This document shows positions 12,771-62,600 of a DNA stretch of 64,000 bases, in pieces. Each line of letters begins with the position of its first letter. The stretch's first letter is position 1. Under the pieces are notes generated by a model. It was not told the DNA's origin and did not search any database. It was given only the letters and a program-made list of their open reading frames with translations. A program made the position numbers and the translations under genes. Source of the DNA: a virus; the IMG/VR virus record IMGVR_UViG_3300022916_000006, positions 1-64,000 of that record; one strand, 5' to 3'.

Positions 12771-13871
12771 ATGTCAAAAACTAATACGGACACATTGGCT
12801 GGAGTCTTAGCCAATGATTTAAACAAACAATTTAAAGATAACGACAAAGTGGCGTTCTTTTTAGATGACGCAAAAGGATCACCTACTGATGTAGTTGATT
12901 TCGTTTCAACAGGATCATCAATTTTAGATTTAATAATTTCAAATAGAAAAAATGGTGGATTACCATACGGTAAAATAGTAGAGTTTCAAGGGTTAGAAGC
13001 ATCAGGAAAATCATTAATATGTTCACATGTAATTGCTGAAGTACAGAAGCAGGATGGAATTGGTATATACATAGATACTGAATCTGCGGCATCTCAAGAG
13101 TTTTTAACTGCTATTGGAGTGGATAACAGTCAAATGTTATATTTGAGTTTTGATACGGTTGAAGATATTTTCAGTTCAATTGAAGCATTAGTAACAAGAA
13201 TAAGATCATCAGATCGAGACAGAAAAGTTGTGATAGTGGTTGATTCTATATCAGCCGCATCAAGTAAAGTTGAAATGGAAGCTGATTTTGATCAAGCTGG
13301 TTGGGCAACTGCAAAAGCTATTATTATTTCAAAAGCTATGAGAAAATTAACACAAATGATTGCCAAACAAAAAATATGCTTAATATTCACATCACAATTA
13401 CGAATTAATCTTGGTGTATCATTTGGTGACAAATACATAACATCAGGTGGTAAAGCATTAGGATTTCATGCATCAGTTATTGTTAGATTAACAAAATCAT
13501 TAAAAATCAAAAACCCAAAAGGTGATATAATTGGAATTCAAGCGAAGGCTAAAATTCATAAAAATAGAATAGGACCCCCATTACGAGAAACTACTATATT
13601 GATATATTTTGATCGTGGGATTGATGATATTAACGGATGGTTGCAATTTTTGAAGATTCGAAAGTTAGTAAAATCAGGTGGGTCTTGGTACACAATTACA
13701 CATCCAACTACAAAAGAAGACATTAAATTTCAAGCAAAAGATTGGGAAAATAAACTTAAAGATCCTGTATTGAAAAGTCATGTGTATGATATTATATGTG
13801 ATGATTTAATATTAACATACAAAAAACGTGAAGATCGTAATTTAGATAATATTAACGTAGTAGATGAATGA
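12771..13871 (+). CDS. recA: RecA/UvsX recombinase
   Basis: VSTGSSILD, Walker A GLEASGKS, YIDTESA, IVVDSISA, TSGGKALGFHASV. Confidence 0.95.
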   Translation: MSKTNTDTLAGVLANDLNKQFKDNDKVAFFLDDAKGSPTDVVDFVSTGSSILDLIISNRKNGGLPYGKIVEFQGLEASGKSLICSHVIAEVQKQDGIGIYIDTESAASQEFLTAIGVDNSQMLYLSFDTVEDIFSSIEALVTRIRSSDRDRKVVIVVDSISAASSKVEMEADFDQAGWATAKAIIISKAMRKLTQMIAKQKICLIFTSQLRINLGVSFGDKYITSGGKALGFHASVIVRLTKSLKIKNPKGDIIGIQAKAKIHKNRIGPPLRETTILIYFDRGIDDINGWLQFLKIRKLVKSGGSWYTITHPTTKEDIKFQAKDWENKLKDPVLKSHVYDIICDDLILTYKKREDRNLDNINVVDE

Positions 13872-19035: not shown

Positions 19036-21552
19036 ATGTATCAAAATATACACATTACAAGATTAAAAAACGCATATAAAGTTCATCTATGGGATGATGC
19101 TGATGGATATTCAGAATATATACACAAAACATATGCATACGTAAAAAATACTAAGGGTAAATATCTATCATTATATGGTGATAAAGTTAAAAAGGTTGAC
19201 CATTGGAGTAAAGAAGACTTACAAGCAGGTAAGATATTTGAAAGTGATATCCCACCAGAAACACGAGTCTTAATTGATAAATATGGTGAATCTGATGAAG
19301 TATCAATTAATCATAGAGAATTATATTTTGATATAGAAACTGAAGTAACACAAGGATTTCCTGATAAAAATAGAGTGGATAATAAAATAACATCAATAGC
19401 ATTATATGATAAATCAAAAGATGCATATTGTGTATTTATCACATCAGAAGATAATTTAAATTATATAGAAGATAATGTAACGGTGGAATCGTTTGATACT
19501 GAAGAATTAATGTTACATCGATTTTATGAAGAATATGTGACAATATCACCTACCATATTGAGTGGTTGGAATATTGATGGATTTGATGTTCCATATTTAT
19601 ATAATAGAACGAATAGATTGTTTGGTGAAGAATATGCAAATTCACTATCTCCCATCGGAATTGTTCAATATAATGAGTATAGTGATACATATAAAATTGC
19701 AGGAGTATCTTGTTTGGATTATTTAGCATTATATAAAAAGTTTGCAATTAAACAACAATCTTCATATCAATTGGGTGCCATTGGTCAACTTGAGGTTGAC
19801 ACAGGTAAGATTGAATATAGAGGATCATTGAATGATCTATATAAAAATGATATTAAAAAGTTTATTAAATATAACTTAAATGATGTTGTAATTATTAAAA
19901 AATTAGATGATAAATTAAAATATATTGAAATTGCTATGGGTATTGCTCACATTGGACATGTGCCATATGATACCATATATCATAGTAGTAGATATCTTGA
20001 TGGTGCAATTCTTACATATTTGAAGAAAAATAATATAATAGCACCGAATAGAAAACAAATAACAAAAGAAGCTAAAGATTCACATTTCAGTGGTGCATAT
20101 GTAAAAGAACCAATTCCTGGTAGATATGATTGGGTATATGATTTGGATTTGACATCAATGTATCCAAGCATAATTATGTCATTAAATATATCACCAGAAA
20201 CTAAAATAGGTAAATTTGAAAATTGGGATGATACATCTCTCATTGATGAAAATAAAGATGATCATATATTTATAAAAACCGATGGTACTAAATATGAATT
20301 GACACATAGTAAGATGAGGGAAATACTTGATAATAACGAGATGACCATTTCATCAAATGGAGTGATGTATGATAATGATCGAGTAGGAGTGATTCCTACA
20401 ATATTGAACACTTGGTTTGATCAACGAGTGCATTATAGAAAGTTAATGGCACAATATGATGAGTCTGGTGATATTAAACAGAGAGATTTTTATGATAAAC
20501 GTCAACATGTTCAAAAGATTATATTGAATAGTTTGTATGGTGTATTAGGATTATCAGTATTTAGATTTTATGATATTGATAATGCTGAGGCAACTACATT
20601 GACTGGTCAAGCTCTTATTAAATATACTCAAAAGATGGCTAATTATTATTATAATAATGAATTGAACGATGATAAGGATCATGTAATATATACAGATACT
20701 GATTCAATATATTGTTCTGCTGTACCAATAATAAAGAATAGATTTCCTAATATAGATGTGTCAGATGATAAAATTATGACAGAAAAAATATTGGATGTAA
20801 CATCAAATGTGCAAACATTTATTAATAAAAGTTATGATATGTTTGCTGATAAACTTTTAAACTGTAAATCGCATAAATTTAACATAAAGCAAGAAGTGAT
20901 TTCAAAATCAGCATTTTGGGTTACTAAAAAAAGATATGGTCAATGGATTATAAATGATGGTGGGACTCCATGTAATAAATTAGATGTTAAAGGACTTGAT
21001 ATTGTTAAAAGTAATTTCCCAGTATCATTCAGAGGTATTATGACTAAATTGTTAAATGGGATATTAAATCATGATCCTAAATCTCAGATAGATGATATGT
21101 TATCAAATTTTAAAATGAAAATGAAAACATTACCATTAAGTGATATTGCATCTCCAACTGGAGTAAATAATATGAAAAAATTTAAACATAAACCTAGGAC
21201 AATATATAATTCAAATATGATATTCACGAAGACTAAAAAAGGAGCACCAGCTCATGTCAAAGCTGCTATAGTTTATAATGATTTATTGGAATATTTTAAA
21301 CTTACGAATATAGTACCAATTACTAGTTCAGATAAGATAAGATGGGTATATTTAATAGAAAATCCTCTAAACATAGAACAGATTGCATTTAAGGGATATG
21401 ATGACCCTGAAGAAATCATGAGTTATATTAATATGTATGTTGATCGTAATAAAATATTTAACAAATTATTGCAGAAAAAGATAGACATGTTTTATGATAG
21501 CATGAGTTGGGTATTTGTTGATACTCAAAATACATTAGAACGTTTTTTTTAA
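19036..21552 (+). CDS. Family B DNA polymerase (gp43-like)
   Basis: Exonuclease motifs FDIET and GWNIDGFDVPY; polymerase motifs DLDLTSMYPSI, KIILNSLYG, YTDTDS, KKRY; C-terminal QNTLERFF. Confidence 0.97.
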   Translation: MYQNIHITRLKNAYKVHLWDDADGYSEYIHKTYAYVKNTKGKYLSLYGDKVKKVDHWSKEDLQAGKIFESDIPPETRVLIDKYGESDEVSINHRELYFDIETEVTQGFPDKNRVDNKITSIALYDKSKDAYCVFITSEDNLNYIEDNVTVESFDTEELMLHRFYEEYVTISPTILSGWNIDGFDVPYLYNRTNRLFGEEYANSLSPIGIVQYNEYSDTYKIAGVSCLDYLALYKKFAIKQQSSYQLGAIGQLEVDTGKIEYRGSLNDLYKNDIKKFIKYNLNDVVIIKKLDDKLKYIEIAMGIAHIGHVPYDTIYHSSRYLDGAILTYLKKNNIIAPNRKQITKEAKDSHFSGAYVKEPIPGRYDWVYDLDLTSMYPSIIMSLNISPETKIGKFENWDDTSLIDENKDDHIFIKTDGTKYELTHSKMREILDNNEMTISSNGVMYDNDRVGVIPTILNTWFDQRVHYRKLMAQYDESGDIKQRDFYDKRQHVQKIILNSLYGVLGLSVFRFYDIDNAEATTLTGQALIKYTQKMANYYYNNELNDDKDHVIYTDTDSIYCSAVPIIKNRFPNIDVSDDKIMTEKILDVTSNVQTFINKSYDMFADKLLNCKSHKFNIKQEVISKSAFWVTKKRYGQWIINDGGTPCNKLDVKGLDIVKSNFPVSFRGIMTKLLNGILNHDPKSQIDDMLSNFKMKMKTLPLSDIASPTGVNNMKKFKHKPRTIYNSNMIFTKTKKGAPAHVKAAIVYNDLLEYFKLTNIVPITSSDKIRWVYLIENPLNIEQIAFKGYDDPEEIMSYINMYVDRNKIFNKLLQKKIDMFYDSMSWVFVDTQNTLERFF

Positions 21553-54364: not shown

Positions 54365-56115
54365 AAATAACAACAGTGAATACATTAGACTTTGATTTAT
54401 TAGAAATCATAAAGGATAAATCAAATAGAGTAATTGATGGAGTGAATCATGGTAGAATTACTTACTATGATCGTATAAGGGATCGATATATAAAGATATT
54501 TGATGAGGACTACTGTAGACTATCATATTTTAAGAACGCTATTAAATGTGGATATTATGATACATTAGCTCCAGCACTATCATCGGTCATATTTGATAAT
54601 GGCAATATAATTGGTTATATAACGAATGCTGGTAAAGTGTTAAATGATTTAAATCTATTAAAAGAATATGAAAATAAAATAATTGATGTATGTGATGCAA
54701 GTGGATTATTTTATTATGATTTAGTTCCAGAAAATGTAATACAATTACCAAATGGTGAGTTAAGCTTAATTGATTTGGATGGTGTATATGATATTTCAGA
54801 TTACAGTTTGATGAATTCACATAATGCAGAAATCAAACCAAATACATTAAAAAAATATATACAACAAAAATGGAGTGATAAATATATGAAGCCAATTAGT
54901 TTTATAATACCAAGCAGAACAAATCTAAAATATTTAAAACAAGCATATAATTCAATAAGACAAAATCTACATCCAATGCATGAAATTTGTATTGCCGATG
55001 ATGCTTCAACAGATGATACTTGGAAGTGGTTGACTGAAAAAGTCAAAACAGATGTTAATTTAAAATTATATAAAAATGAAGGTCCAGATAGATTAGGTCA
55101 CACAATATTATATGATACATTGGTGAATGAAATATCAACAAAGGATATTATCTGTATATTTCATGCTGATATGTATGCATGTAAAGGATTAGATGATGAG
55201 TTTATTAAATATCTAAAGCCAAGTGTAGTTGTGTCAGGTACTCGAATTGAACCACCATTACATCCAGACGGTCCTGAAAAGATAATAAAAGATTTTGGAA
55301 TAGAACCAGAAGAATTTAAAGAAAGTGAATTAAACGATTTTGTTGAAAATTTAAAAAATCAACATAGAACCAAATTAACAAATGGTATATTTGCACCCTG
55401 GGCTATGTATAAAGATGACTTTCAATCAATTCATGGACACGATCCATTATATGCCCCACAATCAAAAGAAGATTCGGACATCTTTAATAAGATGCATCTT
55501 GCTGGATATGATTTTATTCAGACTTGGAATGGTTTTGTATATCATATGACATGTCGTGGAAGTAGATTTGCTGATGGTGCAAAGAGAAATCCAAATGGTG
55601 AAGTATTTATGAAAAATCGTGAGACTGATGAATGGTTGACTCAGAATAAAAAATCACATAGAAACTTCATTCGTAAATGGAGCTCAACGGTATTACATGA
55701 TGCATATTTGAAACCAATAGTAAAGAATAAATATAATATTGGATTAGTAATATCAAATGCTAACTATGAATTAATTGAAATACTTGAACCATTCTTTGCA
55801 ACATTATATGTAGATTGTGATTTTAAAATATATGTTGACAATGAACAACCAAACACATTATATTCAATGATGGATAGAGTACAGAATATTGATGTTACAC
55901 CACATAATGATATTGTTGTAGAATTCGATGCATCAAAATTAACAAATGAATTGCTCAATGAATTCTTGATAAAATTATCAGATGTGATTGCAGATTCTGG
56001 TGAAATTGGTGAGTTCGAATATGAGATATTTAAAATAAAAATAAAAAGTGTTTCATCATATCAAAAAGATTTATTATATTATGATAACAATATAATCAAT
56101 AAAAGAGCGTTTTAA
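54361..56115 (+). CDS. Kinase-like domain fused to a GT2 glycosyltransferase
   Basis: YIKIF, YYDLVPENV, LIDLDG; then ISFIIP, IADDASTD, FHADM, EDSD, VYHMTCR. Confidence 0.8.
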   Translation: MKITTVNTLDFDLLEIIKDKSNRVIDGVNHGRITYYDRIRDRYIKIFDEDYCRLSYFKNAIKCGYYDTLAPALSSVIFDNGNIIGYITNAGKVLNDLNLLKEYENKIIDVCDASGLFYYDLVPENVIQLPNGELSLIDLDGVYDISDYSLMNSHNAEIKPNTLKKYIQQKWSDKYMKPISFIIPSRTNLKYLKQAYNSIRQNLHPMHEICIADDASTDDTWKWLTEKVKTDVNLKLYKNEGPDRLGHTILYDTLVNEISTKDIICIFHADMYACKGLDDEFIKYLKPSVVVSGTRIEPPLHPDGPEKIIKDFGIEPEEFKESELNDFVENLKNQHRTKLTNGIFAPWAMYKDDFQSIHGHDPLYAPQSKEDSDIFNKMHLAGYDFIQTWNGFVYHMTCRGSRFADGAKRNPNGEVFMKNRETDEWLTQNKKSHRNFIRKWSSTVLHDAYLKPIVKNKYNIGLVISNANYELIEILEPFFATLYVDCDFKIYVDNEQPNTLYSMMDRVQNIDVTPHNDIVVEFDASKLTNELLNEFLIKLSDVIADSGEIGEFEYEIFKIKIKSVSSYQKDLLYYDNNIINKRAF

Positions 56116-56390
56116 TGAAATATCCATGTTATATAGTCAAGATGAAGTCAACCAACAATATGGCGTTTAGTTGTAGTCCAGCATATTTAACCAAAGCATC
56201 AACAGGTGTTGTGACTGGTAAAATATGGATAGATTCTAATATTAATGATGCTATTAGATTTGAAAGAAACGTAGATATAAAAAACTTACATAAACATGAA
56301 ATTCCAATTAATTTATCAATATTAGTGGCTAAATATGGCGAACCAATGAAAATAAATTCAGAAGCTGAATGGGTAGCAATGATGTTATGA
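56115..56390 (+). CDS. Small-protein array member 1
   Basis: MKYPCYIV...DAIRF...SEAEWVAMML. Confidence 0.75.
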   Translation: MKYPCYIVKMKSTNNMAFSCSPAYLTKASTGVVTGKIWIDSNINDAIRFERNVDIKNLHKHEIPINLSILVAKYGEPMKINSEAEWVAMML

Positions 56391-56605
56391 AATATTATAT
56401 GATATATGATCCAGGTATGAGTGCCACCGAATTAAAATTTGTTTTTTATAATAGAGCATTGACTGTTTATAAATATACAACTGACTTTAGCAATAGTGAT
56501 ATTGTAGTATCAGATTCTAGAGATAAATTAAATAGTAATAGTGGTAAACGTTGGGGAAATGTTAAAGTATTTTCTGAAAATGAAATTATACCATATATAT
56601 TGTAA
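56387..56605 (+). CDS. Small-protein array member 2
   Basis: MKYYMI...SENEIIPYIL; start reassigned to the ATGA overlap at 56387. Confidence 0.75.
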   Translation: MKYYMIYDPGMSATELKFVFYNRALTVYKYTTDFSNSDIVVSDSRDKLNSNSGKRWGNVKVFSENEIIPYIL

Positions 56606-56610
56606 AACAT

Positions 56611-56835
56611 ATGAAATATTATATTATAAGACCCAAGACAGATATAAAAAATCCATATATTGCCCAAATGTCTAAGAATGATTATTATGCTACCCGTAAT
56701 GTTGAAGACATTGTATCATTTAAAACCAAGTCTGAAGCTCAAAGAGTGATAGCACATGAAAGTATGAGGTATCCTGAGTTCTGGTGTGATGCTTATGTGA
56801 TAGATGAAAATGAACTGATACCCCATCTGTTATGA
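56611..56835 (+). CDS. Small-protein array member 3
   Basis: MKYYII...FKTKSEA...DENELIPHLL. Confidence 0.8.
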   Translation: MKYYIIRPKTDIKNPYIAQMSKNDYYATRNVEDIVSFKTKSEAQRVIAHESMRYPEFWCDAYVIDENELIPHLL

Positions 56836-57062
56836 AATATTATATTATACGAATAAGTGATAATGAAAACCATTACAAATATGTTATGACAAGTGGATCA
56901 GGGTTACATTATGGGGCATCACCAGACTATACAAGGATAACAGCATTCAAGTCCAAAACACAAGCACAAAACATAATAACTGCAGGCTGTAAACGTGATA
57001 TGAATTTTTGGCATGATATGGTGGTAGTAAATGAGAATGAATTGGTTGCACATATTTTATGA
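56832..57062 (+). CDS. Small-protein array member 4
   Basis: MKYYII...FKSKTQA...NENELVAHIL. Confidence 0.8.
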   Translation: MKYYIIRISDNENHYKYVMTSGSGLHYGASPDYTRITAFKSKTQAQNIITAGCKRDMNFWHDMVVVNENELVAHIL

Positions 57063-57313
57063 AACGTTATTATATTGTATGGAAATATGTTGATATTGAT
57101 AAGAGTTCAGTTGGAAATTGGCTCTGGCATTATGCTTACATGCGTAAGTATGTAATTGATGATGAACATGATGTTTTTTATTGGACATTTAATATAAATG
57201 AAGCACGGGTTTTTAATTATAAACTTTATGCTAAATGGTACATGTGGAGTCGAAAACGAACAGCTCATATGTGTATATTATCAGAACAAGAATTAGTATT
57301 GAAATTATTATGA
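57059..57313 (+). CDS. Small-protein array member 5
   Basis: MKRYYIV...EARVF...SEQELVLKLL. Confidence 0.8.
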   Translation: MKRYYIVWKYVDIDKSSVGNWLWHYAYMRKYVIDDEHDVFYWTFNINEARVFNYKLYAKWYMWSRKRTAHMCILSEQELVLKLL

Positions 57314-57522
57314 ACAAATATTATATTGTATATCGTGTTAGTAGCTCAAATGAGTACGTATATAGAGGATCGAATGGGTGGTTGAGTACAACAAATGATA
57401 GAAAAATTATACCATATGAATCATATGAACATGCTATGGTGGATTATGTTGGGTTGCATTGGGATATAGCGGATAACACATCAATAATGGATGAAATTGA
57501 ATTGCTTGCTAAATTATTATGA
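57310..57522 (+). CDS. Small-protein array member 6
   Basis: MNKYYIV...YESYEHA...DEIELLAKLL; start reassigned to the ATGA overlap at 57310. Confidence 0.8.
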   Translation: MNKYYIVYRVSSSNEYVYRGSNGWLSTTNDRKIIPYESYEHAMVDYVGLHWDIADNTSIMDEIELLAKLL

Positions 57523-57833
57523 ACAAAACGCTCAAACCAAGAATATATCCATATTATGTATTAAGATTAAAAGATGGTAAAAAAGGATATGCATCTCAAG
57601 TACATCATCGTAAAACATCTCACATATTTAGACGACAATTTGGATCATTTAAACAAACAGTCAAGCGACCTAAGATAATACATTCAGTGGATATGTTGGA
57701 AGCTCATAAATTTAAAACCTTTATTGAAGCATATGCTATGTGCAATATTAGTGTGAAATGGACCAATGAAGATAGTTTATATGATATAATTAAAATATCA
57801 GATGAAGCATGTGAAATGGTATATTTATTATGA
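57519..57833 (+). CDS. Small-protein array member 7
   Basis: PYYVL...EAHKFKTFIEA...EACEMVYLL. Confidence 0.8.
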   Translation: MNKTLKPRIYPYYVLRLKDGKKGYASQVHHRKTSHIFRRQFGSFKQTVKRPKIIHSVDMLEAHKFKTFIEAYAMCNISVKWTNEDSLYDIIKISDEACEMVYLL

Positions 57834-58072
57834 AACATTATATAATATATAAAGATGAAAGAGATAGTGGATATGTTCAATATGATATTACGGCAAATTC
57901 TTATGAATTAACTAAAAATATTAATAATATTATTGGATTTGATTCCAAAAGAAAAGCACAATTTATGATTACAGAGAGAATTAATTATTGTATTAAGCGT
58001 GGGTATAATTATCACTTCTGGAGTTATGTAACAATAGTGACAGAAAGTGAATTGGTTGCATATTTATTATGA
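57830..58072 (+). CDS. Small-protein array member 8
   Basis: MKHYII...FDSKRKA...TESELVAYLL. Confidence 0.8.
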   Translation: MKHYIIYKDERDSGYVQYDITANSYELTKNINNIIGFDSKRKAQFMITERINYCIKRGYNYHFWSYVTIVTESELVAYLL

Positions 58073-58311
58073 AATATTATATTATAGCAATAAAGGGTGA
58101 TACAACATATTACAGATCATATTTCTTAAGGAGACATGAAGATATATATTCATACTGGTCAATAAAATTTAAAAAAGCAATAGAATTTATATCTAGGGAT
58201 GAAGCAACTAAGTTTACAAAAACTCATAGCTATAAATATACAGTTGGTGTACCATCTATGAGTGATCTTAAAATTGTATCAGAAACTGAATTAGTTGCAT
58301 ATTTATTATAG
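58069..58311 (+). CDS. Small-protein array member 9
   Basis: MKYYII...KAIEFISRDEA...SETELVAYLL. Confidence 0.8.
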   Translation: MKYYIIAIKGDTTYYRSYFLRRHEDIYSYWSIKFKKAIEFISRDEATKFTKTHSYKYTVGVPSMSDLKIVSETELVAYLL

Positions 58312-60143: not shown

Positions 60144-61271
60144 ATGAGAATAATCAAAACGACTGAATATGCTACCATACTGGAATTGTGCTACACTGCA
60201 AAACAGCCACTATTTATACAAGGTGGACCTGGAGTTGGTAAGAGTGAAATTCCACGACAAGTATTTTCTGAAATCGCTAAACGAGATAAACTTGAATTTG
60301 TCGAATGGGACAAATGCTCAAATGAGAAGAAGGCTAATTTATTTGTTAATCCAGATAAATATTTTGTATTTTGTGATCAGAGATTATCACAAATGGATAC
60401 GACTGATTTAGGTGGGCTACCAATGCCAAGTGAAGCAAAAGATCGACTGTTGAAAATTCCACAAGCGTGGATTGTTTATTTTTGTGATCAAAAATCAAAT
60501 GGTGTTATTTTCTTTGATGAAATTAACTTAGCACCACCTGTTGTTACTGGATCAGCATATCAGATCATTCTTGATAGATCAATGTCTGACATGAAATTAT
60601 CCGATAATGTTTATGTGATGGCTGCTGGAAATAGATCAGAAGATCAAGCGTTCACACATCAAATGCCATTGCCACTACGTGACCGATTTAATGAAATTGA
60701 AATACGACCTGATAAGAAATCTTGGGTTAGTTGGGCATCTAAAAATGGTGTGAATCCTCACTTGATTGCATTCATTAACTGGAAAGAAAGTTATCTATAC
60801 AAAGTTGATCAAAACGCATCAAATAAAAGTGTAACTCCTCGTGGTATTGTTCGGGCATCACATTTGCTTGGTGATTTGAATTTCTTGGGAAGTGTATCGA
60901 ATACAAAGAAAGCAAGATTGTATCTTGATATTTCTGTTGGTGAAGGATTCTCACAAGAGTTCATGGCTTACATCAAATATTACAAAAAACTCAAATGGGA
61001 TACTATTTACAAAAACCCAAAAGAAGCACTTGCTAAACTTGAACGAAATGAAATCTTTGCTGTTACTGGTGGATTGATTGAACATTACATGGGAACTAAA
61101 TACAGCACTGATCAAATCATCAATGTCATTAAGTACTTGGGATCAGAATTCTCAATCATGACACTACGAATGATTAAAGATACTGATGAAGCTAAATTTA
61201 TGAAAGTTGCATTGAAGAATAAAACTTTCATCTCTGAAATCACTGACGATATTAAAAAATACTTACTATAA
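60144..61271 (+). CDS. MoxR-like AAA+ ATPase
   Basis: Walker A GGPGVGKS, Walker B IFFDEINLA, AAGN, PLRDRF, TPRG. Confidence 0.9.
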   Translation: MRIIKTTEYATILELCYTAKQPLFIQGGPGVGKSEIPRQVFSEIAKRDKLEFVEWDKCSNEKKANLFVNPDKYFVFCDQRLSQMDTTDLGGLPMPSEAKDRLLKIPQAWIVYFCDQKSNGVIFFDEINLAPPVVTGSAYQIILDRSMSDMKLSDNVYVMAAGNRSEDQAFTHQMPLPLRDRFNEIEIRPDKKSWVSWASKNGVNPHLIAFINWKESYLYKVDQNASNKSVTPRGIVRASHLLGDLNFLGSVSNTKKARLYLDISVGEGFSQEFMAYIKYYKKLKWDTIYKNPKEALAKLERNEIFAVTGGLIEHYMGTKYSTDQIINVIKYLGSEFSIMTLRMIKDTDEAKFMKVALKNKTFISEITDDIKKYLL

Positions 61272-61304
61272 ATTTTAATATCAAAAAGCAAAAAGGAGAA
61301 GTGA

Positions 61305-62600
61305 GTGAGTAGTAATAATACAAGTCACACGTTAAATGCTGAAGACAGATTGCTTCGTGGTAAAATTAAACTACAACGTGAACAGCCATTTTATGCATAT
61401 CTATTACTGGGGTTGGAATGTGTTAAAAACAATAAAATTCCAACTGCTGGTGTTGATATGGGAAGACACATGTATTACAATGAGAAGTGGGTTCAAAACT
61501 TATCTGATGAACATTTAAAGTTTGTCCTATGTCATGAAATCTTACATGTTGTGTTGTGTCATTTGATTCGTGGTGGAACTAGAAAACATCGTTTATTTAA
61601 TATTGCGGCTGATATAGTTATAAATGCTATGTTGGTTGAAGATGGATTTTCTACACCACCAGACGTAATTCAAATTGTTGATAACAGATGGGAATACAAA
61701 GACGCAAAAGGCAAAAAACATTACATTGACAAGTGCTCAGAAAAATCATCAGAAGAAGTATATGATGAACTTCAAAAGATTTCTGAAGATATGGATGAAC
61801 GAGATGCACATTATAAATGTGATGGTAATTGTCAACCTGGTGATGGTGATGGTCAGTGTAAAGGTGGTGGTGAATGTACTTGTGGTAATGAATTTGGTGA
61901 TGTTGATCAATTTGATGAACACATGAGAGAATCAGGAATGTCACAAGATGAAATCGATGAAGCCAAAGAGGAGTTCAGAAGACAAATGGTTGAAGCCGCT
62001 ACCCATGCAAAAAGTAGAGGCAACATGCCAGGATCAATGAAACGAATCTTAGATGATTTGTTAAACCCTCAACTTGATTGGAAAACATTATTATATAATT
62101 ATATCACAAAAGATATAATATATGATTTCACAATGAAACGCCCAGGTAGAAGAAGCTTTGCGGCAGGAGTATATCTACCAACCGTATTGAGAGAAAATCT
62201 TGATATTGATATTACAATTGATACATCTGGTTCAATTGGTGCAGAAGAATATAAGTCATTCATGAGTGAAGTGATTGGTATTGCAAATGCATTTGAAAGT
62301 ATCAAAATGAACATTATCTTTTGGGATACTCAAGTTAGAGAACCAATTGAAAAAGTTACAATGGGAAACAAAGAGCATTTGTTAAAAATGACACCAAAAG
62401 GTGGTGGTGGAACTACAATGTCATGTCTTGGTAAATACTATGAAGGTAAACAATTACCAAAATTGATTGTCACCCTAACAGACGGATATGTTGAATGTAA
62501 TCCTAAATTACCAATGGGTGTACAACATCTGTTTGTGCTATCAAAAGATAGCTCAGATGAACAGCTTAAAGGTCTTGGAGTCATAACCAAGTTAAAATGA
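61305..62600 (+). CDS. vWA-domain protein with N-terminal metallopeptidase-like domain (DUF2201-type)
   Basis: TAGVD...YYN, CHEILHV..H, NIAADIVIN; MIDAS motif IDTSGSI, GGGGTTM, TLTDGY. Confidence 0.88.
   Translation: MSSNNTSHTLNAEDRLLRGKIKLQREQPFYAYLLLGLECVKNNKIPTAGVDMGRHMYYNEKWVQNLSDEHLKFVLCHEILHVVLCHLIRGGTRKHRLFNIAADIVINAMLVEDGFSTPPDVIQIVDNRWEYKDAKGKKHYIDKCSEKSSEEVYDELQKISEDMDERDAHYKCDGNCQPGDGDGQCKGGGECTCGNEFGDVDQFDEHMRESGMSQDEIDEAKEEFRRQMVEAATHAKSRGNMPGSMKRILDDLLNPQLDWKTLLYNYITKDIIYDFTMKRPGRRSFAAGVYLPTVLRENLDIDITIDTSGSIGAEEYKSFMSEVIGIANAFESIKMNIIFWDTQVREPIEKVTMGNKEHLLKMTPKGGGGTTMSCLGKYYEGKQLPKLIVTLTDGYVECNPKLPMGVQHLFVLSKDSSDEQLKGLGVITKLK

Follow-up and report, generated by a model that had tools for sequence, protein, structure and literature searches.

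The window analyzed here is a stretch of 64,000 nucleotides, contig positions 37928-101927 of a 113,597-bp IMG/VR record of an uncultured large phage (IMGVR_UViG_3300022916_000006). At window positions 56115-58311 nine consecutive open reading frames lie on the plus strand, and each encodes a protein of 70-104 amino acids. The shared motifs are M-K-Y-Y-I/V at the start, F-x-S/T-x-x-E/D-A in the center and S-E-x-E-L-V-A-Y-L-L at the end. A profile built from the nine genes scores every member at E values of 1e-17 to 5e-29, and the genes therefore constitute a real family and not a chance grouping. An earlier note on this DNA, written from the sequence alone, had described them as consecutive paralogs with shared end and central motifs. 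The reading frames and the profile confirm this observation, which was if anything understated: it covers the smaller of two arrays.

The first gene of this array, A1 (56115-56390; 91 amino acids, MKYPCYIV...SEAEWVAMML), has a start codon that overlaps the stop of an upstream 584-residue GT2-like gene (TAATG). A2 (56387-56605; 72 amino acids from MKYYMIY) ends in TAA, and a 5-nt spacer separates it from A3 (56611-56835; 74 amino acids); this is the only junction in the window that is not an ATGA overlap. A4 (56832-57062; 76 amino acids) is the sister of A3 in the tree, and A5 (57059-57313; 84 amino acids, MKRYYIV) is rich in tryptophan. For A6 (57310-57522; 70 amino acids from MNKYYIVY) a strain variant with one different residue is known (P0078). 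The starts of A2 and A6, at 56387 and 57310, were refined to the methionines of MKYY and MNKYY. The most divergent member is A7 (57519-57833; 104 amino acids), which has an N-terminal extension, a long insertion and a pI of 9.7. The array closes with A8 (57830-58072) and A9 (P0001; 58069-58311), both of 80 amino acids, the latter with the stop codon TAG. Direct reading of the junctions bears out that seven of the eight are ATGA overlaps, as had been noted. In the A8/A9 junction (58041-58086, plus strand), for example, the DNA codes for ..S-E-L-V-A-Y-L-L, passes through the stop-start overlap TTATGA and continues with M-K-Y-Y-I-I.

A second array, B, with 36 members is located just past the end of the window (contig 102032-110978, equivalent to L009:2033-10979). 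It is interrupted by one unrelated 97-residue protein with CxxC...CxxC motifs (L009:3964-4257), which gives a sub-threshold zinc-RING match. The 113.6-kb record thus holds 45 members, of which 43 were found with an iterated profile and two were added by eye; of roughly 176 predicted genes they account for about a quarter, and they occupy about 10% of the DNA. None of the 45 reading frames is interrupted, and the encoded proteins have 61-110 amino acids. Their net charge ranges from -12 to +9 and their pI from 4.1 to 9.9, with values below 6 in 20 of the 45. The true number of members must be higher than 45, since at least 12 further family proteins that are absent from the record are recorded on a sister contig: for each of them, as for A9, the longest contig listed is 126,796 bp.

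The members are only distantly related to each other. Mean identity between paralogs is 24% and the maximum is 43%, and proximity in the array hardly adds to similarity (identity 0.25 for neighbors versus 0.24 for distant genes). Arrays A and B do not form separate clades in the tree, which is star-like; its end branches have a median length of 1.12 substitutions per site when calculated with the members of the record and those of a second phage contig, G001. The family is an old set of tandem paralogs that evolves by birth and death, and it is not a recent accordion of the poxvirus type.

Overlap between stop and start codons is characteristic of both arrays. ATGA overlaps occur at 35 of the 42 within-array junctions, and in a crude gene call of the record that allowed ATG starts only they were found at 33 of 45 family junctions as compared to 16 of 130 junctions between other genes. 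This enrichment would fit translational coupling by termination-reinitiation. No terminators and no excess of promoters were found inside the arrays, and scans for sigma-70 promoters, terminators and T4 late promoters (TATAAATA) gave results no better than shuffled sequences.

The earlier note also proposed that the gene boundaries carry a conserved DNA junction of about 35 bp. A consensus of that length does exist, with copies that are 63-93% identical, but no conservation was detected beyond that of the peptides and the codon usage. The family has a strong AT-rich codon bias (GAA 81%, TAT 91%, AAA 79%), and the overlap requires an A both as the third base of the last codon and as the first base of the second codon; TTA is the last codon in 38 of the 45 genes. 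For amino acids shared by two members, the codon is also shared in 62% of cases in the tail (55% expected) and 76% in the head (69% expected), compared to 63% in the gene interior (58% expected). The junction repeat can thus be explained by the conserved peptide ends, the codon bias and the ATGA overlap together, and since the excess of identical synonymous codons is no greater than inside the genes, the junction is not a DNA element conserved in its own right. At the synonymous level only the final TTA is constrained, and this by the overlap.

Exact matches between junctions were compared with a null model in which codons were resampled while peptides and overlaps were kept fixed. The number of pairs sharing 20 nt or more was 13, against 6.4 +/- 3.1 under the null model (P about 0.05; range 0.045-0.075), and the longest exact match was 28 nt, against 23.9 nt. 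Many gene boundaries have incidental stretches of 15-28 nt in common, and in gene interiors exact matches between members are at most 17 nt long. The two junctions that flank B20 (B19/B20 and B20/B21) share 28 nt, rare codons included, and the heads of B31 and B36 have 25 nt in common, again with rare codons. Junction windows fold no better than shuffled sequences (-4.8 versus -5.3 kcal/mol), palindromes were not found at the junctions, and the inverted repeats in the array are weak, consist of A and T only and are placed elsewhere. Neither a tyrosine integrase (PF00589) nor a reverse transcriptase (PF00078) was matched in the 113.6-kb record, which according to CheckV is about 53% complete. 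The stated absence of an integrase, attC-like palindromes and a reverse transcriptase consequently holds for the record, and the junction does not constitute a site dedicated to recombination.

Gain or loss of a single member can be seen directly. A metagenome contig of 4 kb (L017) is identical to the reference over flanks of 1073 nt and 2703 nt. Between these flanks the reference contains 4 nt (ATAT) and L017 contains 228 nt. The extra DNA is one complete additional member of 71 amino acids, P0049, inserted between B30 and B31. The N-terminal extension of B31 also differs, being MNKKNNQK in L017 and MKHM in the reference. Besides this one contig sequence the evidence consists of contig counts from cluster look-ups: among public contigs 30 carry B30; B31 is present in its reference form on 23 and in its variant form on 7, and 8 contigs contain the extra cassette. 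Because each form recurs on several public contigs, the difference is not an assembly artifact. Two circulating haplotypes differ by exactly one cassette and by nothing else nearby.

Some junctions of array B have an unusual structure. At B23/B24 (L009:8034-8060) a run of (ATGAA)x5 creates four successive frames of the type MK-stop ahead of the real start, and the run looks prone to slippage. At B15/B16 (L009:6170-6190) and B24/B25 (L009:8250-8270) 4-codon mini-frames, MKYI* and MRYI*, extend from an upstream ATGA to the next ATGA. The latter two look like head-to-tail remnants of deleted cassettes, and the three junctions together are possible scars.

Members of the family also occur outside this record. 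Contig G001 (57.5 kb) carries 12 of them in two clusters on opposite strands, mostly linked by ATGA; it has almost no other genes in common with the record, and its members interleave in the tree with those described here. Microcystis phage Mel-JY01, the nearest cultured phage by DNA polymerase B sequence, has no member. Copy-number variation among relatives was looked for and is thus present, both between the one-cassette haplotypes and between phages with 45, 12 or no members. A tblastn search with two members against 50,697 cultured-phage records gave no match, and related-locus searches with the single members A9 (window 58069-58308), P0032 and P0002 found nothing. With the junction DNA pattern as query G001 was the sole contig found in IMG/VR, eight loci were found in JGI metagenomes, with family members in L017 only, and GTDB genomes gave three chance matches, none with members. 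A separate observation concerns a very large repetitive protein that is open at the start of the contig (contig 1-5178). It matches G001:2683-9093 with about 25% identity; only two proteins are clearly matched between the record and G001, of which this is one.

An alignment of 72 sequences shows which parts of the proteins are maintained. About 17 positions are conserved, namely K2, Y3, Y4 (100%), I5, Y15, W22, F32, S/T34, A38, I55, V56 and the terminal S-E-x-E-L-V-A-x-L-L; the remaining columns have an entropy above 3 bits, close to random, and insertions are confined to three loops. AlphaFold2 models of A9 (mc6ff6ad2234b; pLDDT 83.6, pTM 0.75) and B18 (pLDDT 93.5, pTM 0.80), both calculated with the family alignment, have the same order of elements, b1-b2-b3-a1-b4-a2, in agreement with one family with one predicted fold. 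In the predicted core, strand b1 is formed by KYYI, strands b2 and b3 each contribute a single aromatic residue, and helix 1 begins with the capping box F-x-S/T-x-x-E/D-A and is followed by strand b4. Next comes the C-terminal S-E-x-E-L-V-A-x-L-L, which forms a second capping box and an amphipathic helix 2. When plotted on the B18 model the conserved positions are the hydrophobic residues of strands and helices and the two capping boxes of the type S-x-x-E/D with which the helices begin. The ELxxxLL tail had been interpreted as a common docking or sorting signal. As a free tag it is not supported, as the prediction, at high confidence, makes it the final helix of the fold, complete with its capping box. 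In view of the near-random columns outside the core, the insertions in loops and the wide range of charge, a conserved surface site is not apparent. According to the models the members share a scaffold and everything exposed differs, and they would be stand-alone cytoplasmic mini-proteins.

Searches for known relatives yielded little. All members were compared with Pfam, PHROGs and NCBIfam, and only scattered single matches below threshold were obtained, with no family recurring; the family profile found nothing below an E value of 0.1 among PDB sequences. A known domain with an ordinary function is therefore absent across these collections. Foldseek found no match in the PDB for either model. 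With VIA-align, run against 48,161 chains, the best match of both models was the 70-residue chain 8g9s_A, with Z scores of 5.0 (rmsd 3.5, 58 aligned residues) and 3.3, which lie below the stated noise level of about 7-8. The 8g9s structure stems from a study of the type I-C inhibitors AcrIC8 and AcrIC9; chain A has no sequence match to the family, and the resemblance serves as a lead only. Weak resemblances to SPOR, RRM and topoisomerase domains (Z 2.5-3.3) are likewise below noise. For SPOR (PF05036) no member matches in Pfam and structure 2lfv scores Z 3.2, also below the noise level; sub-threshold SPOR matches do occur on some long fused relatives. A relationship to two known DNA-binding domains was not supported. 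AP2 (PF00847) and INT_rpt (PF14882) gave no match in the record at E values up to 1 and 10, respectively, and hhalign of the family against an INT_rpt protein gave a probability of 18%.

Structure searches in collections of predicted models gave mostly unnamed hits. The ESM Atlas returned unnamed viral clusters, DUF2849 at 0.84, which is a lead only, and an HNH endonuclease cluster at a TM score of 0.67. Foldseek against BFVD found many unnamed phage proteins of 60-100 amino acids (Cellulophaga, Vibrio ICP1, cyanophage, crAss-like and other phages) with TM scores of 0.5-0.68. The profile also detects longer proteins from other phages in which 2-7 copies of the domain are fused, chiefly matching the central part (b1-b2-b3-a1-b4). 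Fused forms include P0021, P0028, P0059 and P0065, besides P0067 with its two copies ahead of an HNH endonuclease; the tandem forms have 380-2400 amino acids, and one of these also has a domain resembling 2'-5' RNA ligase. The repeat units of P0059, read by eye, are without the C-terminal ELVAYLL helix, and a few other small matches also end without this tail.

In view of the above we favor, with a confidence that stays slightly below even, a reading in which this is a translationally coupled, old multigene family of binders that combine a constant scaffold with a variable surface and evolve by birth and death with gain and loss of cassettes. The arrays would be read as long co-directional transcripts on which ribosomes pass from gene to gene by termination-reinitiation at the TTATGA overlaps, and these overlaps would fix TTA as the last codon and AAA or AAG as the second. 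As a set, the products may be small binders or inhibitors whose many different targets belong to the host or to rivals. Single cassettes would be gained and lost, probably via recombination in the 15-28 nt of incidental identity that result from the conserved head and tail codons. That the members would act as binders or inhibitors with different targets, in host takeover, anti-defence or toxin neutralization, is suggested by conservation of the core only, the diversity of charge and loops, the very large size of the family and a copy number that varies between strains as well as between phages.

Several observations weigh against this interpretation. The family has no match to a known anti-defence protein. 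The models of A9 and B18 both use the family alignment, so that their common fold is partly built in. Best matches between the two phages are only 38-45% identical, which is too low to establish any member as a conserved ortholog. The breakpoints of the indel lie in head codons, yet they do not correspond to a simple crossover between two junctions, and the excess of junction identity over the codon-based null model is only marginal. Further, P0067 consists of two domain copies in front of an HNH endonuclease, and the related domain occurs in tandem repeats within long phage proteins; both could point to nucleic-acid binding.

The binder interpretation can be carried further. In its strongest form the phage would possess a heritable library in which 50 to about 90 binders, each a single domain with the same undescribed mini-fold, would have targets of their own among host defences, toxins and takeover functions; the library would be expressed from translationally chained arrays and edited in nature one cassette at a time. 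We consider this version possible but rather doubtful.

A different emphasis is obtained if recombination is the driving force. The earlier note considered the locus a gene accordion, in which the junction of about 35 bp would be kept as a homology arm and a recombinase would shuffle, amplify and drop cassettes on short time scales. The one-cassette indel between identical flanks is what this mechanism would produce, a RecA/UvsX-like recombinase gene is present at window 12771-13871, and both the few junction pairs that share 25-28 nt with rare codons and the scar-like mini-frames and (ATGAA)x5 run would be in line with it. However, near-identical copies are missing, as shown by the 43% ceiling on amino acid identity, the 17-nt limit on interior exact matches and the lack of greater similarity between neighbors. 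Synonymous sites at the junction vary as codon usage predicts, the excess of exact matches is marginal, and the breakpoints are not those of a clean crossover from junction to junction. Of the accordion proposal, the tight linkage by ATGA overlaps and the indels of cassettes at gene ends stand, but recent copies are lacking in a tree that is star-like and the junction is not selected as DNA. As an explanation of the arrays we regard it as unlikely.

Alternatively, the family could have arisen by diversification of a small domain that binds DNA or RNA, its members serving as site-specific regulators or chaperones. The domain pair ahead of the HNH endonuclease in P0067, the HNH endonuclease cluster in the ESM Atlas and the weak SPOR, RRM and topoisomerase resemblances would agree with such a function. 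The fold resemblances are below the noise level stated for the tool, though, and the AP2 and INT_rpt searches described above were negative. Furthermore, 20 of the 45 members are acidic, with a charge down to -12, and a conserved basic patch is absent since only core residues are conserved. The chance that the members are nucleic-acid-binding modules appears small.

The expansion might also be largely neutral or selfish, with genes that persist because they are cheap and coupled to their neighbors and not because each is useful. This would explain why the nearest cultured relative does without the family and why a given cassette may occur in one circulating haplotype and be missing from another. 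Against it, all 45 frames have remained intact and each has kept the 17 core positions despite about 1.1 substitutions per site on the end branches, so that foldability must have been under purifying selection in each of them. Moreover, in a genome as densely coded as this one (coding fraction 0.94) the family takes up about 10%. A neutral origin of the arrays is accordingly improbable. Least probable of all is that the members are packaged in the virion and injected with the DNA like the internal proteins of T4, with fixed terminal peptides as packaging or protease signals and variable bodies that would encounter the defences of the host, for although the phage has a T4-type family B polymerase and the combination of constant ends and a variable middle resembles T-even internal-protein loci, the ends are here b1 and b4 plus helix 2 of a compact domain (pLDDT 92-95) and not free peptides, packaging of at least 45 different proteins seems unlikely, and neither capsid nor protease genes adjoin the arrays.

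The preferred reading, an old family of coupled binders, can be compared with multigene loci in other viruses and in bacteria. Paralog expansions on a large scale typify the arms races between large eukaryotic viruses and their hosts. The MGF100, MGF110, MGF360 and MGF505 families of African swine fever virus (ASFV) and the host-range families of poxviruses consist of tandem, co-directional, diverged paralogs with a copy number that varies between strains, and they are thought to have roles in host interaction. The arrays described here resemble them in having many diverged small paralogs in tandem and in the gain or loss of whole genes between strains. They differ in that those eukaryotic virus genes have their own promoters and other folds, whereas the phage genes are of 61-110 codons and chained by ATGA. 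The poxvirus K3L accordion is similar as a case of recombination-based copy-number change in a large DNA virus, but its copies are transient and near-identical, whereas no pair in this family exceeds 43% identity.

Integron cassettes are likewise promoterless small genes in a row on the same strand that are present or absent one by one between strains. Unlike integrons, the arrays have no attC-like palindromes and no integrase was found, the cassettes belong to a single protein family, and the repeat is coding sequence. A diversity-generating retroelement would differ as well: no reverse transcriptase was found and, with a longest interior exact match of 17 nt, there is no near-identical pair of template and variable repeats. 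In polyimmunity loci (SUKH and Imm families; PMC3113570, PMC3482391) small diverged paralogs are arranged in tandem, each thought to neutralize a different toxin, and some have been recruited by DNA viruses. The likeness to these loci is one of logic only, namely tandem diverged paralogs on a conserved scaffold; a sequence or fold match to SUKH or Imm proteins is lacking and toxin genes are not nearby.

In T-even phages, polymorphic internal-protein loci share only a short N-terminal targeting peptide. Similar to these hyperplastic loci, the present arrays occur in a T4-like phage and consist of variable small genes with short constant terminal peptides. The difference is that in the T-even loci the targeting peptide is cleaved and the bodies are unrelated, whereas here the constant parts form the predicted core of one fold. 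With respect to size and predicted structure (60-100 amino acids, TM 0.5-0.68) the members resemble the uncharacterized small phage proteins found in BFVD, and they differ from the tandem-domain phage proteins by the C-terminal ELVAYLL helix that the P0059 units do not possess.

To our knowledge a paralog expansion on such a scale has not been described for phages, and our literature search on phage tandem paralog arrays, phage gene accordions and Mel-JY01 found nothing directly relevant. If the members are binders with distinct targets, they would be a ready-made set with which new defence systems, and inhibitors of these, could be discovered. The family would then be the phage equivalent of the multigene families with which large eukaryotic viruses evade immunity, and its fold a natural small-binder scaffold, compact at 60-80 amino acids and with about 17 fixed residues, that could be used in protein engineering. 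The arrays would also be a clear case in which translational coupling and protein constraints together create incidental recombination hot spots. The one-cassette polymorphism between strains makes the evolutionary dynamics directly measurable in metagenomes.

The genome in which the arrays reside has about 29% GC and carries every gene on one strand; the coding fraction given above was obtained from the same crude gene call as the junction counts. The T4-type DNA polymerase is encoded at window 19036-21552, and its best cultured match, that of Mel-JY01 with 44% identity, places the phage, as far as this sequence comparison goes, among distant T4-like myoviruses. Directly upstream of array A (window 32852-56115) is a long run of glycosyltransferase-like genes (GT4, GT2 and TOD1/MUCI70-like). 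The 584-residue gene that abuts A1 has its GT2 domain at residues 180-296, preceded by an N-terminal region of 180 residues without a Pfam match. Downstream of array A, window 60144-62600 encodes a MoxR-like AAA_5 ATPase and, after it, a DUF2201 protein that combines a putative metallopeptidase with a VWA-like domain, and a second, stand-alone DUF2201 VWA-like protein is encoded between arrays A and B (L009:61-528).

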